Shown here: in pieces, positions 630 to 4,545 of the stretch
How the letters are laid out: every line of letters starts with the position of its first letter
How positions within the stretch are numbered: the stretch's first letter is position 1
Virus record (IMG/VR): IMGVR_UViG_2778261227_000008
DNA from: a virus
Taxonomy: Duplodnaviria > Heunggongvirae > Uroviricota > Caudoviricetes
DNA length: 5,181 bases
Strand: one strand, 5' to 3'
Program-made: the position numbers and the translations under genes
Notes under the pieces: generated by a model
What the model was told of the DNA's origin: nothing
The model's database searches: none
The model's input: only the letters and a program-made list of their open reading frames with translations

Positions 630-1055
630 TCAATGCACAGCCACAATATTTCCTGCAGGGCCACCACGATTCATCTGGTTGAAACCAGCGATCGCCACTG
701 CGACAAAATCATCAGCGTCTCTCACCAGTCGTTCCCGCGTCTCCACTAGTTCCCGAAAATAGGCTGAGCTATGGCTGCGCATTCGGGCCACCAGCAGAGG
801 TGGCATTGCTTTTTCGATAGCTGGTAACAACGCCTGAATTTTTTTAACCGCATCAGGGGTGTCTTTCTCCACCCAGCGGAAAATTTTCTGAGTATTGCGT
901 GCCAGGGCTTCCGGATGGCTGTCGTCATACAGTTCCGGGAACGTAATTCCCAGTTCGAAATACGCTTTGGTAATCTCTGCAGCCGGTACTTTCTCGCCGT
1001 CCGGATGTGCCCAGGCATTCATCGCCATGCGGATGTGTTCATGCTTGATTTTCAT
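630..1055 (-). CDS. ydaT: YdaT-like protein, 141 aa (CII-like regulator of Rac/CP-933P-type prophages; historically annotated as a toxin)
   Basis: ORF-track protein starts MKIKHEHI and is 141 aa. It lies immediately downstream of a Cro-like gene, with ATGA start/stop overlap at 1052-1055. Size and synteny match Rac ydaS-ydaT. The name is from recollection of the family, not a search. Confidence 0.7.
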   Translation of the reverse strand: MKIKHEHIRMAMNAWAHPDGEKVPAAEITKAYFELGITFPELYDDSHPEALARNTQKIFRWVEKDTPDAVKKIQALLPAIEKAMPPLLVARMRSHSSAYFRELVETRERLVRDADDFVAVAIAGFNQMNRGGPAGNIVAVH

Positions 1056-1354
1056 GAATCAACTCCATCAGATAAGCATGCACTACAATCACCTTCAGCA
1101 TGGACTACATGTGTTTGCCCCAAACGAATGCCGCTCGCATACTCAGGCCAAATAAGCTCCCAATCATGGGGTCGTAGCTCCGCCCTACTTACCTGGCCTT
1201 CCGTCGCAGATTCGATCATAAGGGCGCGGGTTGGAGATATAGCTGCTCGTCCAGACGCCATTTGCGATAAGTAAGATGGCGATACACCAAGTCTGGCCGC
1301 GAATTTCTTAGCATCACCAACTCTCAATGATTTAATAAACTCTTTTAATGTCAT
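1052..1354 (-). CDS. ydaS: YdaS-like Cro/HTH (XRE-family) DNA-binding protein, 100 aa
   Basis: ORF-track protein contains LGVSPSYLSQMASGRAAISPTRALMIESATEGQVSRAELRP, a typical HTH recognition-helix pattern. SD-like GAGGAAGG sits just upstream of ATG at 1354. It is divergent from the repressor-like gene and coupled to ydaT. Confidence 0.7.
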   Translation of the reverse strand: MTLKEFIKSLRVGDAKKFAARLGVSPSYLSQMASGRAAISPTRALMIESATEGQVSRAELRPHDWELIWPEYASGIRLGQTHVVHAEGDCSACLSDGVDS

Positions 1355-1382
1355 ACCTTCCTCGGTTTAGTGTTTTTTTGCG

Positions 1383-1445
1383 AGTTTAGTGTTTAATAAA
1401 CCATTAAGTCAAGTATTTGCTTGTTTAGTGATTACTAAAGATAAT
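1383..1445. promoter_or_regulatory. Divergent promoter/operator region between ydaS and the repressor gene
   Basis: Minus-strand promoter candidate: -35 TTGACT (rc of 1407-1412), 18-nt spacer, -10 TAAACT (rc of 1383-1388). Plus-strand candidate: -35 TTGCTT 1417-1422, 17-nt spacer, -10 GATAAT 1440-1445. The 11-bp palindrome GTTTA-A-TAAAC at 1391-1401 lies in the minus-promoter spacer. Direct repeats GTTTAGTG(T/A)TT at 1365-1375, 1384-1394 and 1423-1433. Elements read by eye, not scored. Confidence 0.5.
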
Positions 1446-1451
1446 TACCAC

Positions 1452-1823
1452 ATGCAAAAAAAAGAAATTCGCCGTTTACGTCTCAAGGAGTGGTTTAAAG
1501 ATAAAACTCTGCCACCCAAAGAGAAGAGCTACCTATCTCAACTAATGAGTGGGAGAGCCTCGTTTGGAGAAAAGGCTGCCAGAAGAATAGAGCAAACATA
1601 CGGGATGCCGGAAGGGTATCTGGATGCGGAATACGCAGAACAACCGGAGGTTTCTCCACCACATGCAGGGTTAACGTCTAATCAACTGGAATTATTGCAG
1701 ATTTTTTCAGCCTTCCCTGAGGATGAGCAACGCCAGATAATCAGCGAGTTAAAGCAGAAAAAAGAATCAATGGAAGACCTCATAGCGAGATGGATTGCGG
1801 CGCAAAAATGCCGCCGCGCCTGA
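1452..1823 (+). CDS. paaR2: HTH transcriptional regulator of a three-component toxin-antitoxin operon, 123 aa; occupies the prophage repressor position
   Basis: ATG at 1452, in frame within track ORF 1389..1823; the GTG at 1389 has no SD. XRE-like segment EKSYLSQLMSGRASFGEKAARRIEQTYGMPEGYL. It is divergent from the Cro-like gene and followed by an antitoxin-toxin pair. Identified as paaR2 from memory of the E. coli O157:H7 paaR2-paaA2-parE2 system; paralogue number not verifiable here. Confidence 0.65.
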   Translation: MQKKEIRRLRLKEWFKDKTLPPKEKSYLSQLMSGRASFGEKAARRIEQTYGMPEGYLDAEYAEQPEVSPPHAGLTSNQLELLQIFSAFPEDEQRQIISELKQKKESMEDLIARWIAAQKCRRA

Positions 1824-1843: not shown

Positions 1844-2035
1844 ATGAATAGAGCCCTTTCACCAATGGTTTCTGAGTTTGAAACCATTGAACAAGAAAAC
1901 AGTTACAACGAATGGCTGCGTGCGAAAGTAGCAACGAGCCTTGCAGATCCGCGCCCAGCAATTCCTCATGACGAAGTTGAGCGCAGAATGGCAGAACGCT
2001 TTGCTAAAATGCGCAAGGAACGGAGCAAGCAGTAA
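1844..2035 (+). CDS. paaA2: Small antitoxin, 63 aa (PaaA2-like)
   Basis: ATG at 1844 with SD GGAGGA at 1835-1840, in frame within track ORF 1790..2035. Product is MNRALSPMVSEFETIEQENSYNEWLRAKVATSLADPRPAIPHDEVERRMAERFAKMRKERSKQ. Its stop is 1 nt before the toxin start. Size and position fit the antitoxin of the ParE2 system, as recalled. Confidence 0.7.
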   Translation: MNRALSPMVSEFETIEQENSYNEWLRAKVATSLADPRPAIPHDEVERRMAERFAKMRKERSKQ

Positions 2036-2036
2036 A

Positions 2037-2315
2037 ATGTTACCCGTATTATGGCTTGAAAGCGCAGATACCGACTTGGATGATATAACTGGTTATATTG
2101 CTCGTTTCGACATAGATGCGGCAGAACGCTTATGGCAGCGATTAAGGGGTTGTGTGCTGCCGTTATCCGAACACCCGTATTTATACCCACCAAGCGACAG
2201 GGTGCCTGGCTTGCGTGAGATTGTGGCCCACCCTAACTATATAATTCTATACCGCGTAACAACATCAAGCGTTGAAGTAGTAAACGTGATCCACGCAAGA
2301 CGCCAGTTTCCCTAA
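2037..2315 (+). CDS. parE2: RelE/ParE-superfamily toxin, 92 aa (ParE2-like)
   Basis: ATG at 2037, in frame within track ORF 1941..2315. C-terminal pattern YIILYRVTTSSVEVVNVIHARRQFP is typical of ParE/RelE folds. Tightly coupled to the upstream antitoxin. Confidence 0.7.
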   Translation: MLPVLWLESADTDLDDITGYIARFDIDAAERLWQRLRGCVLPLSEHPYLYPPSDRVPGLREIVAHPNYIILYRVTTSSVEVVNVIHARRQFP

Positions 2316-2386
2316 CTTTCACTACCAATAGAAACATAACAACCGCAACGACTTTATCAAAAGCGTTGTGTTTGTTTCGTGTTGTG

Positions 2387-2428
2387 GTTTAGTTTTTACT
2401 TGACTTGAGTTTAATGTTTATTAAACTA
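2387..2428 (+). promoter_or_regulatory. Second operator/promoter copy (PL-like) pointing rightward toward the ydfA-like gene
   Basis: -35 TTGACT 2400-2405, 16-nt spacer, -10 TAAACT 2422-2427. Palindrome GTTTA-T-TAAAC at 2416-2426. The 22-mer gagtttaatgtttattaaacta (2407-2428) matches gagtttagtgtttaataaacca (1382-1403) at 19 of 22 positions. Half-site-like GTTTAGTTTTT at 2387-2397. Confidence 0.5.
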
Positions 2429-2603
2429 CAAATACCAACCCACCCCGCCCCACAGAATGCAGGGCAATACTTCGAGTTACCCGGCAGTGGTCAGGGGTTA
2501 AGTAGCCAGCCCGAGGCGTATGAACATGACGGCAGGGTTCAACTTTAACTATGCAGCAGGTTTTTGTTCCGCTACCCCGGCGTTAAGGGGAAATGAGGTC
2601 AAC

Positions 2604-2756
2604 ATGGATACTATCGATCTTGGCAACAGCGAATCTCTGGTATGTGGCGTGTTTCCCAACCAGGACGGTACGTTCACCGCGATGACGTATACCAAAAGCA
2701 AAACGTTTAAAACCGAAGCTGGCGCGCGTCGCTGGTTATCCAGAAATACTGACTGA
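2604..2756 (+). CDS. Small YdaF/YdfA-like prophage protein, 50 aa
   Basis: ATG at 2604 with GAGG at 2594-2597, in frame within track ORF 2520..2756. Product MDTIDLGNSESLVCGVFPNQDGTFTAMTYTKSKTFKTEAGARRWLSRNTD resembles the ~51-aa Rac YdaF / Qin YdfA proteins as I remember them. First gene after the PL-like promoter. Confidence 0.55.
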   Translation: MDTIDLGNSESLVCGVFPNQDGTFTAMTYTKSKTFKTEAGARRWLSRNTD

Positions 2757-3142
2757 TGAGATTAACGATGGAATTTAAAGATTTACCAACACCTTTCCAG
2801 GAAATGGCAGCGAATATAGTTCGTTCTCAATTGGCGACTCTTGACCTGAGTACCGTAGAAAAAGAAACCATAGATAATATATCCGGTAACGTGCGCCGTG
2901 CCTTTATCGGGTTGTACGAAGAGAAGCAGCACTCTGATAAGCATGATTCCTCTGAAAAATACTTCCTGGAATTAATGGATATCATTAACAAGGGGTTTGG
3001 TTTGTTGATGGAAAAGAAAGGGATTCGAATAGAACCCCTTAAAAACCATTTTACTGAGTGCAACATTAATTCCTGTGATTTAAAGCATCCCACTTCAGAT
3101 GGGAAAGTTGAAGCCAACTATAAAATATCAATTAATCATTAA
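2756..3142 (+). CDS. Hypothetical protein, 128 aa (124 aa if started at ATG 2768); no domain recognised; apparently AT-rich
   Basis: Track ORF 2756..3142. The ATG at 2756 overlaps the upstream stop (TGATG). Base composition looks clearly more AT-rich than flanking genes by eye (not computed). No motif I can assign. Confidence 0.5.
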   Translation: MRLTMEFKDLPTPFQEMAANIVRSQLATLDLSTVEKETIDNISGNVRRAFIGLYEEKQHSDKHDSSEKYFLELMDIINKGFGLLMEKKGIRIEPLKNHFTECNINSCDLKHPTSDGKVEANYKISINH

Positions 3143-3198
3143 GTTCTCCACGGGTGAGGTGGAGAACATGCGCCGGACACGGATAAATCTCCGGCATG
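3143..3198. terminator. Two hairpins between convergent genes; candidate bidirectional terminators
   Basis: Hairpin 1: GTTCTCCAC 3143-3151, 7-nt loop, GTGGAGAAC 3159-3167 (perfect 9-bp stem). Hairpin 2: CATGCGCCGGA 3167-3177 pairs with TCCGGCATG 3190-3198 with one bulge, followed by CTCTTT. No strong U-tract on either strand. Confidence 0.4.
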
Positions 3199-3220
3199 CT
3201 CTTTAACATTCTGGATATTC

Positions 3221-3667
3221 CTAACCACAAAGAAATCGCATCAATTTAGATTTTGTGGGCAGCTTCTCTTGTTGTTCGATGGAAACGCCTATTTTGATCT
3301 GTGTTTTTAAGATCGCAATATCTTTAAGTGATGACCAAATATGATCATCCGTTTTTTCCAGAATTTTTAACTGCATTTTCAATTCAGAATCAGAATATTT
3401 TTCTGCATCATCAAAAAGCTGCAAATATTCTGCGGATTTTCTCATGGCGTTACCTGACTTTTGTCCGAATCCATAAATCGTTTGGACGGTTGCGATCACA
3501 ACAATAAAAACGCCAGAAATTTCCGGAATGAATCCGCCAATGACAGATGAACCGAGGATAATACTCACCACTGAGAGAAGTTTATCGAGACGACCAGTCG
3601 CTACAGAAAATAGTTGCTCAAGAAAATAGCCATATAAAATTCTGTCAAGAATATCATCCCGGTCCAT
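3221..3667 (-). CDS. Small two-transmembrane membrane protein, 148 aa; SieB-like (superinfection exclusion) by position, or a SLATT-like 2-TM effector
   Basis: Track ORF; ATG at 3667 with AGGTGA upstream. Two hydrophobic helices (LLSVVSIILGSSVIGGFI and ISGVFIVVIATVQTIYGF) followed by a charged helical tail. Orientation opposite to the PL-like operon and adjacent to a ydaF-like gene, as sieB is in Rac. Functional name is inference. Confidence 0.55.
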   Translation of the reverse strand: MDRDDILDRILYGYFLEQLFSVATGRLDKLLSVVSIILGSSVIGGFIPEISGVFIVVIATVQTIYGFGQKSGNAMRKSAEYLQLFDDAEKYSDSELKMQLKILEKTDDHIWSSLKDIAILKTQIKIGVSIEQQEKLPTKSKLMRFLCG

Positions 3668-3673
3668 ACATCA

Positions 3674-3820
3674 TCACCTGCTTGTTTGGTTGTTGCTGTT
3701 CCCCCTCTCCTCCGAAGGAGCTGGAGATGGTTTTGGTCGAATGTTTTTCTCTGGTATGTGATCCCAGACTGTTTTATGTGTCGAATTGCCACCACCTGCT
3801 TGTGCTCTTTGCTCTGTCAT
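3674..3820 (-). CDS. Possible small ORF, 48 aa, immediately upstream of the two-TM gene; uncertain
   Basis: Internal ATG of track ORF 3674..3937, with AAGGA 6 nt upstream. Its stop TGA is 7 nt before the two-TM gene ATG. Product MTEQRAQAGGGNSTHKTVWDHIPEKNIRPKPSPAPSEERGNSNNQTSR is hydrophilic and low-complexity. A plus-strand ORF at 3727..3882 with SD AAGGAG competes for the same DNA. Confidence 0.25.
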   Translation of the reverse strand: MTEQRAQAGGGNSTHKTVWDHIPEKNIRPKPSPAPSEERGNSNNQTSR

Positions 3821-4119
3821 ATGATTTCCTTGGATCGTTGGGGATATCCAGATTATACAGATTTCTTGTCGTTGGGGAATGACAGGAACCACCTCGCCTG
3901 ACGTGGTTAAAAGCAGGCACACAACACGAAAGCGCACGGCGAAGTCATTTCTCCCTCTGTTGCGTGTCGCCGGTATCTTCGACCGTGCGCTTCCGGTTGT
4001 GGCACTCCGCGAAATGGCGCGGCGGTAAGTATGGCGGGGTTATCCTTACCCCCACTGGTAGCACCGGGTTGTCAGGTTGACCATACGCCTGAGTGACAAC
4101 CCCGCTACAACACTCCATG

Positions 4120-4176
4120 TTGATTTGTACCTTTGGCGGCATCAGTTTCATTGCTGGCTGATGTCCCCCCTTTTTA
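4120..4176 (+). ncRNA. dicF: DicF-like small RNA with terminator-like 3' hairpin and U-tract
   Basis: Sits directly upstream of dicB as in the Qin dicB operon. Segment TTTGGCGGCATCAGTTT matches my recollection of E. coli K-12 DicF (TTTGGCGGTATCAGTTT). Stem CATCAG/CTGATG extended by G-C pairs and followed by CCCCCCTTTTT (4165-4175). 5' boundary is estimated; the 5' portion differs from K-12 as I recall it. Confidence 0.5.
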
Positions 4177-4178
4177 AA

Positions 4179-4340
4179 GTGAATTTTGTGATGCGGTGAA
4201 TGCGGCTGAGCGCACGCGGAACAGTTAAAAAGCGATTAGTTCCCCCGTATCGGGTGTTTATGGGTTTCCCTGTATCCGGCGTTAATTGTTAACTGGTTAA
4301 CGTCACCTGGAGGCACCAGGCACCGCATCACAAAATTCAT
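4179..4340 (+). other. 20-bp long-range inverted repeat bracketing the dicB leader
   Basis: GTGAATTTTGTGATGCGGTG at 4179-4198 is the reverse complement of caccgcatcacaaaattcat at 4321-4340 (19 of 20, the last pair G-U in RNA). The 3' arm ends 4 nt before the dicB SD (GAGGA 4345-4349). Confidence 0.6.
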
Positions 4341-4356
4341 TGTTGAGGACGCGATA

Positions 4357-4545
4357 ATGGAAACGTTATTACCAAACGTTAATACGTCTGAAGGTTGTTT
4401 TGAAATTGGTGTCAGAATCAGTAACCCTGTATTTACTGAAGATGCCATTAATAAGAGAAAACACGAACGGGAGTTATTAAATCAAATTTGCATTCTTTCT
4501 ATGCTGGCCCGTTTACGTCCGACTCAAAAAGGATACTGGCAATGA
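4357..4545 (+). CDS. dicB: DicB cell-division inhibitor, 62 aa
   Basis: Hand translation gives METLLPNVNTSEGCFEIGVRISNPVFTEDAINKRKHERELLNQICILSMLARLRPTQKGYWQ, recognised as DicB. SD GAGGA 7 nt upstream. Confidence 0.9.
   Translation: METLLPNVNTSEGCFEIGVRISNPVFTEDAINKRKHERELLNQICILSMLARLRPTQKGYWQ

Follow-up and report, generated by a model that had tools for sequence, protein, structure and literature searches.

The closest described relative of the locus analysed here is the cryptic lambdoid prophage CP-933P of Escherichia coli EDL933 (Sp12 in strain Sakai), which carries the same gene, paaR2, with the same flanking pairs, ydaS-ydaT and paaA2-parE2, and in which leaderless expression of this gene has been demonstrated experimentally by Jurenas et al. 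(mBio 2021; PMC8630535). In that study, the transcription start of the promoter PRM933P, mapped by 5' RACE, coincides with the paaR2 translation start. When the open reading frame was set at the araB transcription start without a leader, the resulting PaaR2-His had the N-terminal (Edman) sequence MQKKE and an intact mass of 15,081 Da, and the PaaR2 produced from the native promoter was similar in size on a Western blot to the protein from the leaderless construct (PMC8630535). The MQKKE sequence was obtained from this pBAD-construct protein, which has no upstream GTG, and the evidence from the native promoter consists of the 5' RACE and the size on the Western blot.

The same study describes the control circuit. 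The control region contains four 18-bp palindromes plus direct repeats; the palindromes, with half-site GTTTAGTAA, overlap PRM933P, and the DNase I footprints of PaaR2 (~78 bp) and of YdaS span the 97-bp intergenic region (PMC8630535). PRM933P is weaker than PR933P, for which the start found by 5' RACE agrees with the predicted promoter. The activity of a PRM933P reporter was about fourfold higher with basal (leaky) PaaR2, a result that the authors attributed to activation of the promoter at low PaaR2 levels, and induced PaaR2 represses this promoter (PMC8630535). Past the toxin-antitoxin genes, PL933P has hexamers identical to those of PR933P and is repressed by both PaaR2 and YdaS. For PRE933P, located between ydaS and ydaT, YdaT is the activator: without it the basal activity lies below detection, and with it the level is comparable to that of basal PRM933P (PMC8630535). 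The motif TTGATT-N6-AATCAA has been reported for YdaT in a further study (PMC9986795).

The paaR2 immunity region and its relation to CP-933P

The window, that is the whole stretch of 5,181 nucleotides of viral DNA analysed here (IMG/VR record IMGVR_UViG_2778261227_000008), is the immunity region of an E. coli lambdoid prophage. The gene at 1452-1823 is paaR2, the lambda-CI analogue of a cryptic lambdoid prophage of the CP-933P/Sp12 type, and it opens the paaR2-paaA2-parE2 operon. Its product is orthologous to the EDL933 protein (WP_001169686.1), with 121 of 123 residues identical. PaaA2 and ParE are encoded downstream, YdaS and YdaT divergently across a 97-bp operator, and this arrangement assigns the window to the PaaR2/CP-933P immunity regions; the gene order ydaT-ydaS / paaR2-paaA2-parE2 was confirmed by Pfam and RefSeq annotation. 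The genes of the window are the following (anti-SD duplex energies are given in brackets where a start is preceded by a strong SD).

From 558 off the left end, minus strand: O-like replication gene with iterons (gene list)
630-1055, minus strand: ydaT, CII analogue, activates PRE933P; Pfam YdaT_toxin
1052-1354, minus strand: ydaS, Cro analogue; Pfam YdaS_toxin and HTH_3 (SD -8.6 kcal/mol)
1452-1823, plus strand: paaR2 coding sequence, 123 aa (also 123 aa in RefSeq); CI-like repressor without a peptidase S24 domain
1844-2035, plus strand: paaA2, antitoxin, co-transcribed 3' of paaR2; Pfam PaaA2, 1e-19 (SD -9.5 kcal/mol)
2037-2315, plus strand: parE2, toxin; Pfam ParE_toxin, 4.5e-16
2604-2756, plus strand: ydfA (SD -8.3 kcal/mol at its start)
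2768-3142, plus strand: open reading frame of 124 aa without a Pfam match
3221-3667, minus strand: open reading frame of 148 aa with a hydrophobic middle, without a Pfam match
4122-4170 and 4182-4334, plus strand: DicF-like and STnc100-like matches just 5' of dicB, sub-threshold in Rfam
4357-4545, plus strand: dicB, downstream of the DicF-like element
Right part of the window, listed after dicB, plus strand: DUF1482 gene (gene list)

The intergenic region between ydaS and paaR2 (1355-1451) is 97 bp long, which matches the figure given in PMC8630535, and this control region is identical to that of EDL933 together with the first 196 nt of paaR2. Over 1326-1647 there are zero differences from CP-933P of E. 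coli O157:H7 EDL933, and likewise over 1016-1102; the alignment of 1340-1480 accordingly gave 100% identity. At an identity of at least 95%, the region is present in about 590 of the 5,426 complete genomes of E. coli. The window is nevertheless a mosaic relative of CP-933P, not CP-933P itself. Whereas 1016-2376 is ~99% identical, ydaT diverges left of ~1015, its distal two-thirds (600-1015) being ~80% identical, and right of ~2377 (2377-4300) the window has ydfA and the open reading frames of 124 and 148 aa where EDL933 has an ECs_2282-family protein and ydfC. The whole window was unmatched by any single complete E. coli genome in the collection. These mosaic boundaries fit the published view that recombination affects the flanks, the immunity core being kept stable by the paaA2-parE2 pair.

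The 123-aa PaaR2 had no match in Pfam, and the C-terminal S24 autocleavage domain is absent. PaaR2 is thus outside the LexA/CI S24 family and, without this domain, not SOS-inducible. Escherichia phage Evi (LR597642.1, a 40-kb record) encodes at 24332-24700 a PaaR2 that is 99% identical to that of the window; its match to the window as a whole covers 65%, at an identity of 93%. Hence a less degraded phage, perhaps a functional one, may share the paaR2 immunity type.

Two further features lie away from the paaR2 control region. Within the O-like replication gene, 10-bp-phased GTCGTGAC(A/T) repeats occur at 91-161 (four copies) and 371-432 (five or six copies), and these clusters are iteron-type origin repeats as in the lambda ori. 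No match to Rfam was obtained in the window at the gathering thresholds. Below them, DicF scored 30.3 bits (gathering 48, E = 1e-4), with a stem-loop followed by a T-run, and STnc100 scored 36.7 bits (gathering 47). Qin-type prophages carry dicF just upstream of dicB, and the element found here upstream of dicB is probably a diverged DicF-like sRNA.

Promoter geometry and the start of paaR2

Based on the start mapped in CP-933P, on the layout of the identical DNA in the window and on the comparison of homologues presented below, we propose, with a probability of about 0.95, that in the repressed state paaR2 is expressed from the weak promoter PRM933P as a leaderless mRNA whose first base is the A of the start codon. 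The features on which this proposal and its alternatives bear are the following.

1045-1062, strand not assigned: YdaT recognition site TTGATT-N6-AATCAA at the ydaS/ydaT junction; exact match, 0.03 expected by chance
1383-1412, minus strand: PR933P, promoter for ydaS-ydaT, with -35 TTGACT (1412-1407), an 18-nt spacer and -10 TAAACT (1388-1383); promoter scan
1389-1391, plus strand: GTG in frame with paaR2, rejected as a start; weak SD (-2.5 kcal/mol), inside an operator repeat and the PR promoter
1417-1422, plus strand: TTGCTT, -35 of PRM933P; weak match (3/6), 17 nt 5' of the -10
1423-1440, strand not assigned: operator palindrome GTTTAGTGATTACTAAAG filling the PRM933P spacer; site for PaaR2/YdaS, from repeat family D1 and the published footprints
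1440-1445, plus strand: GATAAT, -10 of PRM933P (5/6), the sole good -10 placed for a start at 1452
1446-1451, plus strand: TACCAC, six-base gap between -10 and start, conserved in length and free in sequence
1452-1454, plus strand: ATG, +1 and paaR2 start codon; published 5' RACE, MQKKE and mass, and alignment of homologue N-termini
2400-2427, plus strand: PL933P-like promoter (TTGACT, 16 nt, TAAACT) with OL-type operator repeats; promoter scan

On the plus strand, TTGCTT is followed by the 17-nt spacer GTTTAGTGATTACTAAA (1423-1439), by GATAAT, by TACCAC and by the ATG, and since the canonical start is the seventh base after the -10 hexamer, +1 is predicted at the A of ATG 1452. The spacing of six nucleotides between -10 and ATG in GATAAT-TACCAC-ATG is that of a lambda-type leaderless start. 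From the position of the published +1, we infer that the hexamers at 1417-1422 and 1440-1445 are the PRM933P hexamers of PMC8630535. Over the 22 nt that precede ATG 1452 the best anti-SD duplex reaches -0.9 kcal/mol, i.e. there is no SD, against the values listed above for paaA2, ydaS and ydfA and -2.7 to -6.9 kcal/mol for the remaining starts scored. paaR2 thus has the combination expected of a leaderless gene, no SD together with a 5'-terminal AUG and not GUG or UUG. The sequence-only reading had noted a -10 at 1440-1445 ending 6 nt before an SD-less ATG at 1452, and had inferred that the gene in the repressor position appears to be translated from a leaderless or near-leaderless mRNA. Its coordinates are exact, the lack of an SD is borne out by the duplex energy, and the 5' RACE that it proposed as a check had been published for the identical sequence, with +1 at the paaR2 start codon (PMC8630535). 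The N-terminal sequencing that it also proposed was likewise available, MQKKE from the araB-start construct matching ATG 1452 (PMC8630535), and the comparative data agree independently. The inference was therefore correct, although not new, the leaderless start of paaR2 being already known; it shows that a leaderless gene, verified by experiment, could be predicted correctly from the sequence alone, given an SD-less ATG that follows a -10 after 6 nt and begins the gene in the repressor position.

PRM933P was unlisted in the consensus promoter scan of the window, which recovered PR933P and PL933P; with a -35 of only 3/6, it scores 8/12 overall, against a threshold of 9/12. Such a sub-threshold score fits a weak, activator-dependent promoter of the PRM type. 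Repeat family D1 has copies at 1377-1400, 1416-1439 and 2402-2425, and the palindrome at 1423-1440 is most likely the IR1 of PMC8630535. The third copy falls in a second operator/promoter block at ~2386-2427, in which the PL933P-like promoter repeats the PR region in inverted orientation.

The in-frame GTG at 1389 offers another start, from which translation of a longer mRNA would yield a protein of 144 aa, as some automated callers predict. Its frame is open to 1452, the nearest upstream in-frame stop being TAG 1368, public protein collections contain 144-aa and 150-aa versions with 231 and 153 member sequences, and a PRE933P transcript would include this codon. Yet the published +1 maps 3' of GTG 1389 and the native protein is sized like the 123-aa form (PMC8630535). 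The codon lies within the operator repeat at 1377-1400, as the sequence-only reading had pointed out, and abuts the PR -10 (1388-1383); the accompanying statement that it lacks an SD was too strong, a weak one (-2.5 kcal/mol) being present. Moreover, the N-termini of homologues align to Met1452 and not to an extension from GTG 1389, an in-frame stop occurs within the equivalent 21 codons in 44 of 53 homologous loci (within 4 codons in 14 of them), and the stretch upstream of 1452 is conserved as a promoter and operator would be, not in a coding pattern. We consider translation from GTG 1389 extremely improbable and reject it, since it is largely refuted by the mapped +1, the native size and the stops in these 44 loci. 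Extended PaaR2 entries of 150 aa (P0001) and 144 aa (P0002) have been called from codon 1371 or from GTG 1389 (window 1371-1823), whereas RefSeq has the form of 123 aa that experiment supports; such extended forms are a typical mis-annotation of a leaderless gene.

It could also be argued that the main paaR2 message is leadered, starting at PRE933P or another upstream promoter, that ATG 1452 is an internal start without an SD and that GATAAT-N6-ATG is incidental. PRE933P does exist and YdaT raises it to a level comparable with basal PRM933P, the window has an exact YdaT site at 1045-1062, and a canonical SD is absent from many E. coli genes. Against this stand the 5' RACE start at the ATG and the undetectable basal activity of PRE933P without YdaT (PMC8630535), as well as an offset fixed at 6 nt with free sequence in 33 diverged homologues, which is hard to explain without selection on the start site. 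On these three grounds an exclusively leadered message was rejected, and we regard it as very unlikely. The leadered route is more likely a second, conditional one, like lambda PRE, than a replacement. The site at 1045-1062 is the probable control site of PRE933P, and a YdaT-activated PRE933P should also give a long-leadered paaR2 transcript antisense to ydaS; leaderless expression is thus the maintenance mode and not necessarily the only one.

The leaderless reading suggests the following course of events. In the repressed state, the weak sigma-70 promoter PRM933P (TTGCTT, 17 nt, GATAAT) would transcribe paaR2 and, as suggested by the published reporter data, would be stimulated by low PaaR2. 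Because the -10 hexamer ends six bases upstream, RNA polymerase would begin at the A of the ATG and produce a paaR2-paaA2-parE2 mRNA without a 5' UTR or an SD. By analogy with lambda cI, initiation at the 5'-terminal AUG would probably proceed by direct binding of the 70S ribosome and initiator tRNA, and the unstructured, A-rich 5' end AUGCAAAAAAAAGAAA may aid it; in the predicted mRNA fold the first 35 nt of paaR2 are unpaired (z = +1.49; in 194 of 200 shuffles the fold is as stable or more so). As no leader is needed, the 97-bp divergent region can hold two back-to-back promoters and the operators shared by PaaR2 and YdaS. In the presence of YdaT, PRE933P would add a leadered transcript carrying both GTG 1389 and ATG 1452.

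Conservation of the -10-to-ATG distance among PaaR2 homologues

Genome contigs were used for the family-wide comparison because the phage collection has few PaaR2 relatives, namely Evi at 99% and four distant matches only. The homologues form two groups: PaaR2-like proteins of ~117-130 aa, at 40-75% identity, and proteins of 208-215 aa that resemble PaaR2 only in the N-terminal DNA-binding region (42-71% of the query, at ~60-85% identity) and have an S24 peptidase domain (PF00717) at the C-terminus. In their alignment, the N-termini correspond to the Met at 1452. Reading the DNA 5' of the aligned Met at 68 genomic loci (Enterobacterales, Burkholderiales, Nitrosomonas, Pasteurellaceae and others) gave 53 distinct upstream regions.

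Among these PaaR-type repressors of Gamma- and Betaproteobacteria, a -10-like hexamer stands exactly 6 nt before the aligned ATG in 33 of the 53 regions (62%), whereas no other offset from 0 to 29 exceeds 5 regions and the background is ~1.3 per offset (~2.5%); the arrangement exceeds chance. This bears on the simplest objection, namely that operator DNA rich in A and T has produced the -10-like hexamer next to the paaR2 ATG by chance. The intergenic region does have such a composition, and PRM933P does not reach the threshold of the promoter scan, but the start has been mapped directly by 5' RACE (PMC8630535), by which this explanation was already refuted, and the 62% found at offset 6 is far from the background; we attach practically no weight to it and have rejected it. 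The hexamers at the 6-nt offset are mainly CAAAAT (17 regions, e.g. Yersinia aleksiciae L022 and Proteus mirabilis L030), TAAACT (7, e.g. Caballeronia or Burkholderia, L055 and L061) and CACAAT (4), with others including GACAAT. The gap itself is not conserved in sequence: 31 distinct hexamers occur among the 33 conforming homologues, and positions -6 to -1 carry 0.05-0.31 bits. The TTG of the -35 (-35 to -33, at 17-nt spacing), a position that was not used in choosing the regions, reaches 1.3-1.8 bits across 34 family upstream regions. The same layout precedes two paralogous paaR-paaA-parE modules (75% and 66% protein identity), as GATAAT-GTATGT-ATG and GACAAT-AAGAAC-ATG. A gap of fixed length and free sequence points to selection on the position of the start site, and not on a coding extension or a ribosome-binding site, and insertions or deletions between -10 and ATG do not appear to be tolerated in the PaaR-type cassette.

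The exceptions include the Photorhabdus and Xenorhabdus homologues, which have a different upstream region. The Pasteurellaceae homologues (L047, L051, L057-L059, L062 and L063, from Mannheimia, Haemophilus, Aggregatibacter, Pasteurella and Rodentibacter) have a clear SD upstream. This lineage has apparently given up the leaderless layout for a leadered, SD-led start.

When the upstream regions L003-L070 (e.g. L012, L022, L030, L045, L049 and L066) were compared with window positions 1405-1451, a cassette GTCAAGTATTTGCTTGTTTAG....TACTAAT-CAAAAT-N6-ATG was found with almost every base retained in genera ranging from Escherichia, Yersinia and Proteus to Massilia, Nitrosomonas and Tepidimonas. 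This cassette precedes both short repressors (~117-135 aa) and long S24-peptidase repressors (~206-250 aa) with the PaaR2 N-terminal domain. From Enterobacterales to Burkholderiales and Nitrosomonas, this N-terminal domain appears to go together with a conserved cassette made up of the PR -35, the PRM -35 TTGCTT, a GTTTAG..ACTAA operator, the -10, six free bases and the ATG, and the DNA-binding domain and its operator/promoter look like one module that travels as a whole. We think it likely, if less firmly so than for paaR2 itself, that leaderless expression is an ancestral, selected property of the whole PaaR-type family, in its short and its long S24 forms, and not a peculiarity of CP-933P. 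No report of a family-wide pattern of a -10, six free bases and an ATG was found in a limited search of the literature. The family-wide geometry is a modest extension of a known phenomenon and not a new kind; a 6-nt gap that is constant in length and free in sequence across many genera could serve as a simple search signature for prophage repressors with leaderless mRNAs.

Comparison with other leaderless repressor genes

The sequence-only reading had drawn a parallel with the leaderless lambda cI mRNA made from PRM, and this parallel holds. In both systems the gene occupies the immunity-region position, diverges from a cro-type gene and has a weak promoter that the repressor it encodes stimulates, and the -10/6 nt/ATG geometry is identical (TAGATT-TAACGT-ATG in lambda, GATAAT-TACCAC-ATG in paaR2). 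Both also have a second promoter, PRE or PRE933P, activated by CII or YdaT, respectively. The proteins, however, have no sequence relationship detectable in searches, the 123-aa PaaR2 lacking the S24 autocleavage domain, and lambda has three operators where the paaR2 region has four 18-bp palindromes plus direct repeats. The place of rexAB in lambda is taken in the paaR2 locus by a toxin-antitoxin pair. The first codons, A-rich in both, are strikingly alike in composition, with AUGCAAAAAAAAGAAAUU in paaR2 (1452-1470) and AUGAGCACAAAAAAGAAACC in lambda cI (L071, 741-723, minus strand), and leaderless initiation may in both cases require a start that is rich in A and free of structure.

The racR gene of the Rac prophage also encodes a CI-like repressor and faces away from a ydaS-ydaT pair; of its promoters the strongest, PracR3, gives a leaderless transcript, as PRM933P does for paaR2 (PMC9638921). 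Unlike paaR2, racR has three promoters, two of them leadered (PMC9638921). It belongs to another protein family and has other operators. In the telomere phage PY54, as in paaR2, RACE showed that the repressor mRNA begins with AUG (PMC4488713). In that phage both cI and cro are leaderless (PMC4488713), whereas ydaS has a strong SD here; PY54 is a linear-plasmid prophage and its proteins are unrelated to those of the paaR2 locus. Taken together, lambda cI, racR, PY54 cI and paaR2 support the recurrence of leaderless maintenance transcripts in immunity switches.
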